Positions 42,001 to 48,000 of a stretch of 64,000 nt of DNA are shown piece by piece. Numbering within the stretch: position 1 is the first letter of the stretch; each line of letters begins with the position of its first letter. The stretch lies in assembly GCF_055900595.2 (NCBI RefSeq), contig NZ_CM148325.1; one strand, written 5' to 3'. Position numbers: made by a program.

Positions 42001-45000
42001 ACAGCAGCCACGCGTATTCCTTATCCCACGGAGTCACAGAATTATAATCTTGGTGCACGTCTTGACTGGAAGGCGTCGGCGCAGGATGTGCTCTGGTTTG
42101 ATATGGATACCACCCGGCAGCGTTATGATAACCGGGATGGGCAACTGGGGAGTCTGACGGGGGGATATGACCGGACCCTGCGCTATGAGCGAAACAAAAT
42201 TTCAGCTGGCTATGATCATACTTTCACCTTCGGAACATGGAAATCGTATCTGAACTGGAACGAGACAGAAAATAAAGGTCGTGAGCTCGTACGCAGTGTA
42301 CTGAAGCGCGACAAATGGGGGCTTGCCGGTCAGCCGCGGGAGCTTAAGGAATCGAACCTTATCCTGAATTCATTACTGCTTACCCCTCTGGGAGAATCTC
42401 ATCTGGTTACGGTGGGGGGCGAGTTTCAGAGCTCGTCCATGAAAGACGGAGTTGTCCTTGCCAGCACAGGTGAAACTTTCCGGCAGAAAAGCTGGTCGGT
42501 ATTTGCTGAGGATGAGTGGCATCTCACGGATGCACTTGCGCTGACTGTGGGCAGCCGCTATGAACATCATGAGCAATTCGGGGGACACTTCAGTCCGCGT
42601 GCATATCTGGTCTGGGATGTGGCAGATGCCTGGACGCTGAAAGGCGGTGTGACCACGGGATATAAGGCACCCAGAATGGGGCAGCTACATAAAGGGATTA
42701 GTGGTGTATCCGGGCAGGGAAAAACAAATCTACTTGGTAACCCCGACCTGAAGCCGGAAGAGAGCGTCAGTTATGAGGCTGGGGTGTATTACGATAACCC
42801 CGCCGGTCTGAATGCCAATGTCACAGGTTTTATGACTGACTTCTCCAACAAGATTGTCTCTTATTCCATAAATGATAACACCAATAGCTATGTAAACAGC
42901 GGAAAGGCCCGGTTGCATGGTGTGGAATTTGCCGGCACATTGCCGCTGTGGTCAGAGGATGTCACGCTGTCACTGAATTACACCTGGACCCGAAGTGAAC
43001 AACGTGATGGTGATAACAAAGGTGCGCCGCTGAGTTATACCCCTGAACACATGGTGAATGCGAAACTGAACTGGCAGATCACCGAAGAGGTGGCATCATG
43101 GCTGGGTGCCCGTTATCGCGGGAAAACACCACGTTTCACCCAGAATTATTCGTCACTGAGCGCTGTACAGAAGAAAGTGTATGATGAGAAAGGAGAATAC
43201 CTGAAAGCTTGGACGGTGGTGGATGCAGGTCTGTCGTGGAAGATGACGGATGCCCTGACGCTGAATGCTGCGGTGAATAACCTGCTCAACAAGGATTACA
43301 GTGACGTGAGCCTGTACAGTGCCGGTAAGAGTACGCTGTATGCCGGTGATTACTTCCAGACGGGATCATCAACAACAGGATATGTGATACCTGAGCGAAA
43401 TTACTGGATGTCGCTGAACTATCAGTTCTGATAATAACAAAACGCTATCACTGACGGTAGAATACGTTGCCACTGTAACTCCTGGCGGAACAGTGGCAAC
43501 GTATTAGGTTAAGTGCATTTCCGATCCGCTAATGAGATTTCGTTACCAACAACTAATATCGTCACAGGAAATGCACGGATTATTTTTAACTTATCATTTA
43601 CATACTTGTCCAGAGTGTAAGCGCACCGTGAAGGACGTGGGGTAAAAATTAGTGTACAGAGAGAGTGACGTTCCAGGGCAACAACTCTTTCATGCGGTTG
43701 GCAGGCCAGGTGTTGATTACACTGATCACGTGGCGTAGCCACGTTTCCGGCTCGATTCCGTTAAGTTTTGCAGCTACCGATCAGGCTGTACATCACTGCC
43801 GCACTATCGCTCGTCATCTCAAAGTCCGGTCTCGTCAGCAGGAAGGTATCATTCTCTCCCGCCATTTTTCCGGGGGCCCGGTCAGATAAGTCCCTTTGTC
43901 TATCGCTGACTCCTGGCTCATAACCCGGTTAGCAGAATGCAGGGTCACCACCTCGCCACGACCGAATCCGGATAAGTCAATTGCACCTTCTCAATCGCCA
44001 TTTTGTCACAATTAAGTTTGATAAATCATGTCACCTCTGCACTGAATCTGCTCCAGTGCCTCATTGGTCTCCGTCCACCCCTTTAAACTGCCGGATAAGA
44101 CTGCTGCACAGCGCCTTCCCCGGAATCAAATCACTTTCCCTGTCCGCCACAATCCGCTTCATGCCACCTCGTATTTTGTTTCAGAGACCGGAATCTGCCA
44201 GAAAGTGACTACGCGTGCACATATCGGTTTTCTGGGTTACATGCATCGTGTTATTTTCTGAAATGCAAAATAATAAAAAACAAGGACACATAATGAAGGA
44301 TGAAATACACAGTACCAGCATCAACCCGGATGTTGTTGAGCAGTTTCTGGCCCTTATGAACACACATTGTAAATCCTCAGAAGAGGCGCTCGCCATGCTG
44401 AGTACGCTTTGTTACAACCTGATGGTGACATGCGGTATCCATTCCATGGACAGCCAGATGCTCAATGGGCATGGGATATCCATGCAACTTCAGGGGATTG
44501 ATATTGCCGAAAGGCCAGGTAAGAATATTCACTAACCTGAACAGGGTCTGAAAACGCTGTCTTTTCAGGCCTCTGCAGGCAAAAACTGATGACAACAAAA
44601 TTTCTGCGTTTGTACCCCACCGATGAAAAAGACAAAAACTCACACCGGGCTTCTAGCCAGTAAAGATAAAACCCGACGTGTCAGCCTCTACGAAACGCCA
44701 ACGGCATGGTGTATCAGGGGGCAGGAGTGCTACAGCAAAAGTACAGGACGCCGCTGTGGCAGCCACGACAGTCTGAGCAGACTGCGCCTGGACAGCATTA
44801 AGCCTGTTGAATGAGTGGTGGCACCATGAAAGATAACAGCACAACCGCCACCCCAGAAGCCTGGAAAATGCGTTTTCTGGCCAACGGGACATCCGGCACA
44901 TGGTTTTACACTGACGACATTACAGTCACTGACGCGTGGCTTCGCGCGCACCCGGATGATGTGGAGGTTATCCCTCTCTGCCGGATACCACCCCGTCAGC

Positions 45001-48000
45001 ATTCCCATGAACAACATATTGAAGAACTCCGTGCAGCCCTGGCCCGGATGCTGCATATGCATCATATGATGCTGGAAACCACGCATTACAGGGAAAACAT
45101 CACCGATGCCCGTTGTATCCGTGAAATGCATGAAGCTCCATTACAGGCGCTCAATATTCTGGCCAGATACCCGCATAAAAAGGACGAGGTGTGACGCATG
45201 TGGCTACTGATTTTCTGGCTTTCATCTCCCTTTAATGTCTCTTCCGGTGATGCCCGGCAGCCCACACTGGCGGTGCACAGCCAGGCATTTCATACCGAAC
45301 GGGCCTGTCGCGATGCATTGCACGCCATTAAAAAGGAGAATGTTGGCGAATTTTCTCTGCGGGGCGTTTGTGTTTCTGACGGAAATACGAAGGAGGAAGC
45401 TGAGAGCTCATGACGGATATTACTGACAGACATACACTTCGCCGTATGTCCTGGTCGGAACTCTTCACGGCAGCACAGGAAGCGGAATTTCAGCGTGATT
45501 ACGAGCGTGCCAGAATAGTGTGGTCATTCGCCTTACATGTTGCAACAACCACGATTAACAAAAATCTGGCCATAGCTCATATTCGACGCTGCAATACTTT
45601 GTTGCATAAATCAAAAACAGTACCCGGAAACAACACGGGGGGCCGGTCAGTGTGCCTGAGACCCCAACATCCCCGGAGATGACTGACATTCCGGACTGAC
45701 GCAGTTGCTGCATATCTGTGGCAATACGTTGTATCCAGCCAGACAGGTTATCCCGCGTAGTGACAATTAACCCGCTTTCCTGCACCAGCTTCAGCCGGGC
45801 CGTCGGGGATTTTACCAGCCGGAAATATCAGTAAAACAACATATCATTATGCCATGGTGTACGCGGCCAGTGTACGCTTACTTAAGGAATGAGGGATAAA
45901 TTGGATATTATTACTTCACTTTGCTTTTTTATGAGATTCATCACATAAGTGGGGTTTTACTGTTAAATAATCTGAATTTATTTGATATCCGTAAAGCAGA
46001 TGTCTCAGTTCGCTGTTTCCAACTTTTGTTATTCCTCTGGGGCGAATGCTGTTTCCGCTGGAATATTCACCTGGCACCAGTCCCAGAAAAGCCATGAGCT
46101 GTTCAGGATTGGAAAATCGCGAAAAATCACCCAGTTCAGCAACCAGGGTTATTGCGATTAGTTGACCAACACCTTTAAGAGCCTGCAACTGGCAGACCAG
46201 ATTGCACAGAGATCACTCAGGTAACAGGCGAGATATTTCCTGATCGAGTTGAAGTATGCGATCTTCAATCTGCTCCAGATTCTGACAATAATGTTGAAAG
46301 CAATCTGTTGAGATAGCAGACCAAATGATTGAGCGAGTGTTAGTGATGACAAACGTATCCAGGTACTTCTTATCTCATGGTGTTTTGGTGGATTTCTTGA
46401 GGCGGCAGCCGGATACGGTACAGCGGTAGCAATCCCCATTGGTATACTGATTGCTCTGGGCTTTAACCCACTAAAAGCAGCGATTGCATCACTGGTTGCT
46501 AATACAGTCCCTACAGCGTTTGGGGCAGTAGGTATACCTGTCTCTGTACTTGCTGAACAAGTTAATTTACCTGTAACCACACTCAGCGGGACAATTATTC
46601 TTCAACTGGCACTGTTCAACATTCTGCTTCCTTTCGTCATCGTCGCGATTATCGGTGGTGGTATGAAGACTATACGAGGCGTTGGACTAATTACCCTGAT
46701 GTGTGGTGTCAGTACATTAATTCCCCAGTATCTGGTGGCTGTTAATCTTGGCGCGGAACTCCCGGCTTTCGCGGGTAGTCTTGTCAGTCTGATAGTAATA
46801 GTCTTTATGGCGAAAAACCGTAAAGAAAAAACCGCCCCTGAATTGGGGATGCGGACGATTTCCTAGACTGCTTTATTATGCCAGCCCACATTGTTGGCGG
46901 TACATTTCAGGGCTGACTGCACCCAGCGATAATTTTATACGCCGCTCGTTATACCATCTGATGTAAGCATCTACATGCTGCATGAACTTTTCTGGCGTGA
47001 TGCCCGACCATTTACGCCCATAATACATTTCCGTTTTCAGTCTGCCGAAAAAACCTTCGCATGCGGCATTATCAGGTGAACATCCTTTACGGGACATTGA
47101 GCGAATAAGACCTGCTGCATTCACTCTTTCCAGCCAGCCTGGCCAGCGATAATGCCCACCTCTGTCACTGTGTATCACCGGTCGTTCGCCAGCATTTAAC
47201 GTTTCGACAGCGCTATCCAGCATAGTGTTGACCAGCTCAGCATCGGGGCGTGTACTGAGAGACCAGCTAATAACTTTTCCATCGAAGCAGTCCACCACCG
47301 GTGACAGCCAGACTTTACCTGCAGGGAGTTGGAACTCCGTGATATCTGTCAGCCATTTCTGATTAGGTTGCTACGCCTTAAAATCTCTGGCGATAAGGTT
47401 ATCCGGAGCCGGTCCGATTTCTCCGCAATATGAGCTGTAGCGACGACGACGGTTACGGCTGACGACAAGCTGTTCCTCCACCATAAGTCTGCGTACAACC
47501 TTTTCTGATAGCCGCCCCCCCTCATGCCTGAGCATCGCATGCAGGCGACGATAGCCATAACACTGGTAATTACTGTTAAATATATCTGTCAGCATCGTAC
47601 GTATCGTGGCGTATTTATCACCGGCTTTCAGTGCAGCCCGGTGATAAAAATAACTGCTACGGGTAAGGCCCAGAACATGAAGTAATTCTGTCAGGGGATA
47701 TGTTTGCCTCAGGGCATCAGCGATCTTTGTTTTTTCTCTGTTGTTCAGGTGACTGATACTGATGCCCGGGTCTTTTTTTATGATTTCCTCCGCTTTTTTC
47801 AGAATATCCAGCTCCATCTGCCGGCGGCGTATTTCCTGATTCAGTCGGGCGACTTCCTCCCGCAACGCATCGCGTTCTGCCTCCAGGGAAGGTTCGTTAT
47901 GTTTACGCATAGTCTGGTAAGCACTGTTGCCGATAATTTCATCTTTCTATTTATACAATACCGCACGACTGACACCAATACGCCTGGCGATCTCACTGGC

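Follow-up and report, generated by a model that had tools for sequence, protein, structure and literature searches.

Five small genes beside iha lie on a fragment of IncB/O/K/Z-type conjugative plasmid backbone

Proteins of the ANR family (Aar, Rnr and Cnr; Santiago et al.; PMC4038620, PMC4983702, PMC5570504) are small (<10 kDa) and have three predicted alpha helices, and a cognate AraC/XylS virulence regulator both accompanies and activates the ANR protein. The family signature consists of A10, E14, A22, W26, A29, W43 and R47 (PMC4983702). Aar contacts AggR and H-NS protein-to-protein (PMC4983702, PMC5570504), and ANR proteins act on H-NS, the silencer of horizontally acquired genes (PMC5570504). 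Two further arrangements bear comparison with the locus described here, namely the variable segment between excA/pnd and nuc-trbABC in I-complex (IncB/O/K/Z) plasmids, the pCT-like IncK ones among them, and the Ead/Eaa/Ea22 neighbourhood on the nin side of lambdoid phages.

The window, that is, the whole stretch of DNA analysed, is 64,000 nucleotides long. An initial annotation had described in it four co-oriented small genes, with no function assigned, between iha and IS remnants. That position was confirmed, the four ORFs are where they were said to be (80, 122, 71 and 90 aa), and they proved to be real, conserved genes. Their number was wrong, however: there are five, orfX having been missed between orf1 and orf2. 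The features are as follows.

43649..43799, minus strand: transposase pseudogene fragment in the left flank, between iha and the plasmid segment (Nissle 1917 annotation via L001)
44135..45864, no strand: backbone segment of an I-complex conjugative plasmid (IncK2/Z by MOB-suite; MPF_I, MOBP)
44293..44535, plus strand: orf1, 80 aa, hypothetical; separate neighbour of the cassette
44623..44814, plus strand: orfX, 63 aa, basic small protein
44826..45194, plus strand: orf2, 122 aa, two domains
45198..45413, plus strand: orf3, 71 aa, hydrophobic N-terminus, two conserved Cys
45410..45682, plus strand: orf4, 90 aa, distantly ANR-like
45614..45856, minus strand: frameshifted 3' remnant of a wHTH gene (about aa 125-207 of 207; HTH_39, "ECs1377 family")
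45916..46188, minus strand: transposase remnant in the right flank, where the IS debris starts ("transposase, frameshifted, partial" in Nissle); its translation suggests IS110 type

OrfX fills the 290-nt space separating orf1 and orf2, and is annotated by PGAP in plasmids (WP_000751583.1) and in some chromosomes. An alternative ATG for orf2 at 44811 would give 127 aa. The last three ORFs had been regarded as translationally coupled; orf3 and orf4 do overlap by ATGA, whereas the supposed 4-nt gap between orf2 and orf3 measures 3 nt (CGC). Similarly, SD-like purine runs, claimed for every ORF, precede orf1 (AAGGA, 8 nt upstream), orf3 (GAGGTG) and orf4 (AAGGAGGAA/GAGAG), but only a weak GGTGG lies upstream of orf2. 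Promoter and terminator scans of the cluster gave no signal above chance, so its status as a single operon is unsupported. An Rfam scan found no RNA family in the segment, and a stem-loop between orf1 and orfX was rejected as no better than shuffles (z -1.34).

Because long antisense ORFs also open across the segment, the presence of an ORF is in itself no evidence here. Compared with plasmid alleles and paralogues, the five plus-strand frames have pN/pS values of about 0.08-0.37. For orf1, pN is 0.153 and pS 0.518 against the allele of p13KWH46-3, from which it has diverged to 78% nucleotide identity while the genes downstream are 97% identical. The plasmid pSTM32_108 holds a paralogous orfX-orf2-orf3-orf4 cassette, and dN/dS is 0.08-0.12 for the first three of these genes (0.106 for orf2 and 0.078 for orf3 by individual estimates). 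Against a paralogue, pN and pS are 0.17 and 0.66 for orfX, and 0.30 and 0.81 for the core of orf4. Judged by these substitutions, purifying selection acts on all five plus-strand frames; they are not chance openings, nor are they fragments of a longer disrupted gene, a possibility raised with the initial annotation. Nor is the cluster peculiar to this island, as it occurs in 998 of 5426 complete E. coli genomes (~18%). The paralogous cassette of locus L006 lacks orf1; the recurring conserved unit is orfX-orf2-orf3-orf4, and orf1 is a separately diverging neighbour.

By nucleotide identity and gene order, positions 44135-45864 are shown to be a trapped piece of IncB/O/K/Z-type conjugative plasmid backbone, from the variable stretch between excA/pnd and nuc-trbABC; both features agree with those of MPF_I/MOBP IncB/O/K/Z plasmids. 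The segment is 93.8% identical to pSH15sh99 over 1738 nt (L002, 8934-10671) and 91.2% identical at the nucleotide level to p13KWH46-3, and it is present in 367 plasmids, 358 of them conjugative. The plasmid gene order is excA, a TnsA_N/Sigma70_r4 gene, pnd (Hok/Gef), the cassette, a wHTH gene on the minus strand, nuc and trbABC. The TnsA_N/Sigma70_r4 gene is probably the "putative sigma factor" pCT_066 (PMC3377399). The genes of the window fragment match the corresponding segment of I-complex plasmids (pCT-like IncK ones, for example) in kind and order, at 92-96% nucleotide identity, but the window differs in its truncated wHTH gene and frameshifted orf4 tail. It keeps 1.7 kb, including ~160 nt of native sequence upstream, while pnd, the TnsA_N/Sigma70_r4 gene, nuc and trb are all missing. 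Over aa 139-197 the wHTH remnant matches P0076 by tblastn in a single frame (67% identity), its tail falling in another, and indels are seen in a three-way alignment; the intact plasmid protein matches Pfam HTH_39 (E 5e-6) and phrog_24243 (E 1e-53). The block is thus ordinary mobile-element cargo, not a new system.

Homology to plasmids ends at IS remnants on both sides. Together with the plasmid origin of the fragment, these remnants indicate that its place beside virulence genes reflects IS-mediated mosaicism, and the adjacency gives no evidence for a link to iha or sat. When matches were sampled down the ranking, chromosomal copies were 98.5-100% identical to the window and plasmid copies 91-96%. 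The iha-side arrangement is the same in a second lineage (L013), where the right junction differs, so that the fragment's position next to iha is common to both of the chromosomal junction types examined. This uniform identity and constant position point to a single capture into a pheV-type ExPEC island, probably through IS-mediated rearrangement. The fragment has lost the pnd toxin, and a frameshifted stub is what is left of the convergent winged-helix regulator gene. The plasmid pSTM32_108 hinted that cassette and SPATE genes might be linked, but the idea was dropped, as the window has them in a different orientation and spacing.

How closely does orf4 approach the ANR family? The window protein matches the NCBIfam model ANR_neg_reg with 25.3 bits (E 1e-5, model positions 6-53 of 54), below the curated cut-off of 32 bits (NF033650). 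All 8 members of the orf4 family match the model, the best with E 2.1e-7, the bit score being reported for the window protein only. The weak ANR resemblance first suggested for this ORF is thus repeated throughout its family without reaching the curated threshold in the window, and as scored by this profile it is significant remote homology, not membership. In an ungapped alignment with an offset of +12, orf4 carries 6 of the 7 signature residues (A22, E26, A34, W38, A41 and R59). It resembles the ANR family in its estimated size (~9.5-10 kDa), 48 of 54 aligned model positions, the equivalents of A10, E14 and R47, and the A-x3-W-x2-A core of helix 2, which is invariant in the orf4 family. It differs in its sub-cut-off score, in the replacement of W43 by I, S or T in 8 of 8 family members with a conserved Cys shifted two residues early, and in sitting on a conjugative-plasmid backbone rather than in a virulence regulon. 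The Nissle annotation, where collinear with the window (outside window-specific inserts at ~13.7-15.1 kb and 50.6-53.3 kb), lists no AraC/XylS gene, and two plasmids have none within 9 kb of the cassette. The protein has 83 aa in plasmids and 90 aa here (roughly 9.5 and 10.4 kDa, as estimated from length), a 2-nt deletion relative to the plasmids having changed its C-terminal tail. The database names "neurotensin receptor R8" and "FlgM" are meaningless inheritances; in the literature, the former yielded a passing mention in a list only. A tblastn search of phage genomes with orf4 and a PDB profile search with its family returned nothing and nothing credible, respectively.

Two of the other genes have clear phage relatives. 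OrfX matches phrog_1226 over its full length (E 1.1e-16) and has homologues in 868 plasmids; in Stx2a, Klebsiella and Yersinia phages its homologues follow the replication genes. A zinc ribbon was rejected for orfX, the cysteines not being conserved in the Klebsiella phage homologue. Orf3 matches phrog_3766 (E 1.5e-10), and Klebsiella phage 2b has a 56-aa, translationally coupled homologue of it between EaD and Eaa. The hydrophobic stretch of orf3, ~7-10 residues, appears too short for a signal peptide or membrane anchor and is not preceded by a charged n-region. The phage homologues of orfX and orf3 lie between the replication genes and NinE/NinG, beside Ead/Eaa. Hence the Ead/Eaa/Ea22 neighbourhood of lambdoid phages holds full-length homologues of both, translationally coupled to their neighbours, but the cassette differs in that no member matches an Ead/Ea22 model. 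Both genes occur singly in phages, and orf2 is found alone in L007; the cassette genes therefore need not act together.

Profile searches, of the kind proposed along with the initial annotation, were run for the five proteins across Pfam, NCBIfam, PHROGs and PADLOC, and gave only the sub-threshold ANR match and three PHROGs of unknown function (matched by orfX, orf3 and orf4). Nothing was found for orf1 in any of the four collections, PADLOC had zero matches for any of the proteins, and no defence or toxin-antitoxin family was matched among the PADLOC, Pfam and NCBIfam models. Orf2 had no Pfam, NCBIfam, PHROG or PDB match, its family gave nothing credible in a PDB profile search, and orf2 with 19 relatives matched no NCBIfam model, those for Ead/Ea22 included. 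The structure-based searches proposed at the same time returned for orf2 only generic helical hairpins (AF2 model from 20 sequences, pLDDT 75.9). Word-indexed searches with orf2, orf4 and the orf4 profile turned up nothing beyond close relatives in enterobacteria and spurious names, and guessed CFT073 locus tags (c3611-c3614) led only to irrelevant literature.

Orf2 is nonetheless informative in its architecture. Its N-terminal domain, a predicted beta-beta-alpha-beta unit, does not extend beyond a narrow enterobacterial family, and its C-terminal domain is a predicted helical hairpin bearing ALxRMLxMH...DAxCIRExxEAPxQA. The latter is common to ~50 distant proteins (E 1e-8 to 1e-3) and recurs at the C-termini of varied, phage-type proteins; two distant relatives, P0198 and P0211, carry phrog_2960 segments upstream of it. 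In the fuller motif, ALxRMLxMH...FYDAxCIREMNEAPxQA, the Met, His and Cys positions are invariant or nearly so. The product had been called His/Met-rich, and the stretch is real, but it is a conserved motif of a domain common to phage proteins rather than a matter of composition. The domain could merit a family entry of its own.

Taken jointly, a plasmid-backbone fragment, a single capture, host-modulating accessory proteins and a passenger status in the chromosome make up the reading that we favour, with a probability of about 0.6. The five products would be mobile-element accessory proteins like those of lambdoid phage early and nin-side regions, probably not enzymes but proteins that act by contacting regulatory proteins of the host or the element. 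The most specific guess is that orf4 is a divergent ANR-type helical protein; by analogy with Aar, it may bind a transcription regulator or a nucleoid protein (H-NS family or AraC/XylS), and on the plasmid such binding would tune how strongly incoming AT-rich DNA is silenced. The chromosomal cassette would most likely be a passenger, with no dedicated control of iha or sat. Judged by the gene order and the layout of IncI plasmids, the plasmid cassette would be late-entering and close to trb/nik, outside the leading region, which weakens a role in early establishment. A far-fetched extension makes the cassette a host-reprogramming set, in which an AraC-less orf4 counters H-NS-family silencing and the C-terminal domain of orf2 binds a metal or host factor; if true, its retention in ~15% of complete E. 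coli chromosomes would measurably change how strongly H-NS-silenced island genes such as iha, sat and iuc are expressed.

Several other explanations have to be weighed. Counter-defence genes are typically small, tightly packed and mosaic, as the cassette genes are, and 3 of the 5 genes have phage orthologue groups, with the phage copies in the accessory early region beside Ead/Eaa; the proteins might then neutralise restriction, abortive infection or SOS at entry. However, plasmid anti-defence genes concentrate in the leading region, outside which the cassette lies, and no known anti-restriction or anti-defence family was matched in Pfam, NCBIfam or the PHROG annotations, so that we regard such a function as unlikely. 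Very improbable is an island-stabilising defence module, whether of toxin-antitoxin, abortive-infection or another type. Small coupled genes adjoining the pnd (Hok/Gef) killer locus in plasmids, and the hydrophobic N-terminus of orf3, might suggest one, but that stretch is too short for a membrane helix, neither PADLOC nor the toxin-antitoxin families of Pfam and NCBIfam gave a match, and the genes are found singly in other elements.

The chromosomal cassette might also be inert, unexpressed DNA with its decay yet to come, which we consider less likely than not. Its original pnd-region neighbour upstream and its downstream regulator are lost or broken, no promoter-like site rises above chance, the orf4 tail is altered, and the capture looks recent, as the sampled chromosomal copies are at least 98.5% identical. 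On the other hand, the native upstream sequence is kept and none of the five ORFs is disrupted in either of the two chromosomal lineages compared, between which pN/pS is 0.33 and not ~1 (7 synonymous and 8 non-synonymous changes, a small sample); as a sequence comparison, these 15 changes neither prove nor exclude that function was kept after capture. A dedicated virulence-regulatory operon of the island, with the ANR-like orf4 and helpers controlling iha, sat and other island genes, seems to us improbable. It would accord with the ANR resemblance of orf4, with the targeting by ANR proteins of a silencer of acquired genes (PMC5570504), and with the company of iha in both junction types seen. 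Yet hundreds of plasmids carry the same gene set as part of their backbone, the plasmid cassette neighbourhoods examined are without iha and sat, the collinear Nissle island has no annotated AraC/XylS partner, IS remnants intervene between cassette and iha, and on pO113-like plasmids iha lies ~90 kb away from the paralogous cassette.

The cassette findings open no long-standing question. Their chief value is a corrected annotation, an I-complex plasmid fragment with five genes, one of which, orfX, is frequently uncalled. If orf4 acts like an ANR protein, then I-complex plasmids and many ExPEC chromosomes would carry an orphan modulator acting on H-NS or on AraC-type regulators.

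All four ORFs proposed in the initial annotation, orf1 to orf4, are present, and the ATGA overlap of orf3 and orf4 can be seen in the sequence. The count was nonetheless incomplete, since a fifth co-oriented gene, orfX, lies inside the 290-nt interval between orf1 and orf2 that had been taken as a gap. The spacer between orf2 and orf3, put at 4 nt, is actually 3 nt (CGC), and of the SD-like sequences ascribed to every ORF, those of orf1, orf3 and orf4 are purine runs, while that of orf2 is weak only. Across the cassette, promoter and terminator signals did not exceed chance, and no RNA family was found in the region. 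Because long ORFs are likewise open on the antisense strand, coding was judged from the substitution pattern, with the paralogous cassette of plasmid pSTM32_108 as the reference or, for orf1, the divergent allele of plasmid p13KWH46-3.

Features of the cassette, with substitution values
44293-44535, orf1, 80 aa; pN 0.15 / pS 0.52 against the p13KWH46-3 allele
44623-44814, orfX, co-oriented with orf1 to orf4, 63 aa; pN 0.17 / pS 0.66 against the pSTM32_108 paralogue
44826-45194, orf2, 122 aa; dN/dS 0.106 against the pSTM32_108 paralogue
45198-45413, orf3, 71 aa; dN/dS 0.078 against the pSTM32_108 paralogue
45410-45682, orf4, 90 aa; pN 0.30 / pS 0.81 for the core against the pSTM32_108 paralogue
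45614-45856, minus strand, winged-helix gene remnant, aa ~125-207 left, frameshifted

Judged by these patterns, the five frames all encode real proteins, and the possibility raised in the initial annotation, that they are pieces of a longer disrupted gene, holds for none of them. orfX is also called by NCBI's pipeline in plasmids and some chromosomes, and matches phrog_1226 over its full length (E 1e-16).

The block is a passenger cassette of hypothetical genes that came from a plasmid, and is nothing out of the ordinary. A megablast search with 44200-45750 located it at 811 chromosomal and 263 plasmid places, spread over 998 of the 5426 complete E. coli genomes, contrary to the possibility, raised earlier, that the ORFs are not conserved in related islands. 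The same query found it in 367 PLSDB plasmids, 358 of them conjugative. The three PLSDB plasmids examined are typed as IncK2/Z, MOBP and MPF_I, and therefore belong to the I-complex (IncB/O/K/Z). The backbone position of the block is fixed in the three plasmids examined at that site, where the order is traY, excA, a gene with TnsA_N and Sigma70_r4 domains, pnd (Hok/Gef, minus strand), orf1, orfX, orf2, orf3, orf4, a convergent 207-aa winged-helix gene, nuc, trbABC and nikB. Upstream of pnd in plasmid pSH15sh99 (6887-8473, outside the window), a 528-aa protein joins an N-terminal TnsA-like endonuclease domain to a Sigma70_r4 helix-turn-helix. Judging from its size and location, this protein is probably pCT_066, the "putative sigma factor" of the IncK plasmid pCT (PMC3377399), and the pairing of domains suggests a nuclease-linked DNA-binding protein rather than a sigma factor.

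Homology between the window and plasmid pSH15sh99 spans 44135 to 45864, at 93.8% identity. The left edge lies barely inside the pnd-proximal intergenic region, so that pnd itself is missing from the window; the right edge falls within the winged-helix gene, and transposase remnants directly flank both edges. In a spread sampling, chromosomal rows were 98.5-100% identical to the window, versus 91-96% for plasmid rows. Strain 1579, a second chromosomal lineage, is arranged alike on the iha side and has a different right junction. Given the identity split, the shared iha-side arrangement and the IS-flanked edges, the data fit a single event in which a pheV-type ExPEC island captured a plasmid fragment, which then spread along with it. 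In strain 1579, the junction at window 45741 is followed by an 81-nt fragment (8541-8621 of that record) annotated as "TOTE conflict system archaeo-eukaryotic primase", with DUF417/TetR genes beyond it.

The island runs in the order kps, an Ag43/CP4-like module, nan-like genes, iha, the cassette, IS debris, sat and iuc/iutA, and is collinear with that of Nissle 1917 except for two insertions. These stretches (~13657-15071 and ~50603-53300), missing at the corresponding Nissle positions by megablast breaks, are probably IS insertions, and the window thus comes from a strain related to Nissle 1917, not Nissle itself. The Nissle RefSeq annotation flags a frameshift in iucD (aerobactin synthesis; 2415-3748 of L011, a Nissle-annotated stretch), which maps to window ~60.2-61.6 kb.

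The recurring unit is orfX-orf2-orf3-orf4. Plasmid pSTM32_108 has a paralogous set of these four genes (57-84% amino-acid identity) with a SPATE gene on one side and trbA on the other, and no orf1 homologue was found in that cassette. In p13KWH46-3, orf1 has 78% nucleotide identity versus 97% for the remaining cassette, and so diverges independently. orf2 stands alone adjoining a T3SS/PerC/ProQ region, and orfX and orf3 are each found alone in lambdoid phages; members that occur singly need not make up one machine. The pSTM32_108 cassette (1404-6906) is directly 3' of the SPATE (S6 peptidase) gene, between nuc and trbA, and the SPATE gene of the window, sat, is ~9 kb downstream of the cassette on the opposite strand. 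This repeated proximity may reflect a shared insertion hotspot.

orf1 has no detectable relatives beyond its own cluster. orfX is a basic protein in which the motifs KTHTG and TGRR are conserved; its homologues directly follow replication genes in Stx2a, Klebsiella and Yersinia phages and occur in 868 plasmids, among them records sized like phage-plasmids. A zinc ribbon is unlikely, as the cysteines are not kept in the Klebsiella phage homologue. orf3, which matches phrog_3766, is hydrophobic at the N-terminus and contains two conserved cysteines; in a Klebsiella phage, EaD and Eaa flank a translationally coupled homologue of 56 aa.

orf2 belongs to a narrow enterobacterial family. Its last ~45 residues form a conserved domain (ALxRMLxMH...DAxCIRExxEAPxQA) that an exhaustive profile search found in ~50 distant proteins with unrelated N-termini, two of which, among those scanned, carry phrog_2960 segments. 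The His/Met-rich stretch noted initially does exist, and makes up the motif's core. Pfam, NCBIfam, PHROGs and PDB sequences do not contain the domain. An AF2 model (pLDDT 75.9) predicts a beta-beta-alpha-beta N-domain and a helical hairpin, with which fold searches returned generic hairpins only.

The weak resemblance of orf4 to ANR (AraC negative regulator) proteins can now be put as remote homology. All eight orf4 family members tested match the NCBIfam ANR model (best E 2.1e-7), and orf4 itself aligns to positions 6-53 of 54; its 25.3 bits, however, fall below the 32-bit cut-off. Compared with the published signature residues (PMC4983702), the A-x3-W-x2-A core is invariant and equivalents of A10, E14 and R47 are mostly retained, whereas W43 is absent from every family member and the conserved Cys is shifted by two residues. 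Nor is any AraC/XylS gene annotated in the collinear island or adjoining the cassette in plasmids. On sequence grounds, orf4 is a remote ANR homologue, a candidate rather than a demonstrated family member. It has 83 aa in plasmids, and the 90-aa tail of the chromosomal lineage results from the deletion of 2 nt. Hundreds of orf4-family database entries carry the name "neurotensin receptor R8" or "flagellar biosynthesis protein FlgM"; the sequence supports neither, and the R8 label presumably goes back to the first CFT073 island sequence.

PADLOC, Pfam and NCBIfam gave no defence or toxin-antitoxin signal. The best-supported reading is that the products would be accessory mobile-element proteins working via protein-protein contacts. 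The most concrete hypothesis, by analogy with Aar, which binds AggR and H-NS (PMC4983702, PMC5570504), is that orf4 may bind a regulator or nucleoid protein. The same island has a truncated pseudogene of hha, an H-NS co-modulator, at window 24214-24393 (Nissle annotation, 8056-8235 of L012), so that, with orf4 counted, the island holds what is left of two or more possible modulators of silencing by nucleoid proteins. The polarity of IncI plasmid transfer sets the trb/nik side apart from the leading region, and gene order puts the cassette on the trb/nik side; this position and the modular, separately occurring genes argue against "early establishment" and against one unified function. It is unlikely that the cassette is dedicated to controlling iha or sat, since the adjacency arose at an IS-made junction, and in plasmid records the same genes belong to the backbone with neither iha nor sat close by. 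The two chromosomal lineages compared both keep the five ORFs intact; they differ by 7 synonymous and 8 non-synonymous changes (pN/pS 0.33), too few to tell kept function from recent capture. Two modest points of interest are the uncatalogued C-terminal domain of orf2 and, on I-complex plasmids, a family of orphan ANR-like proteins.
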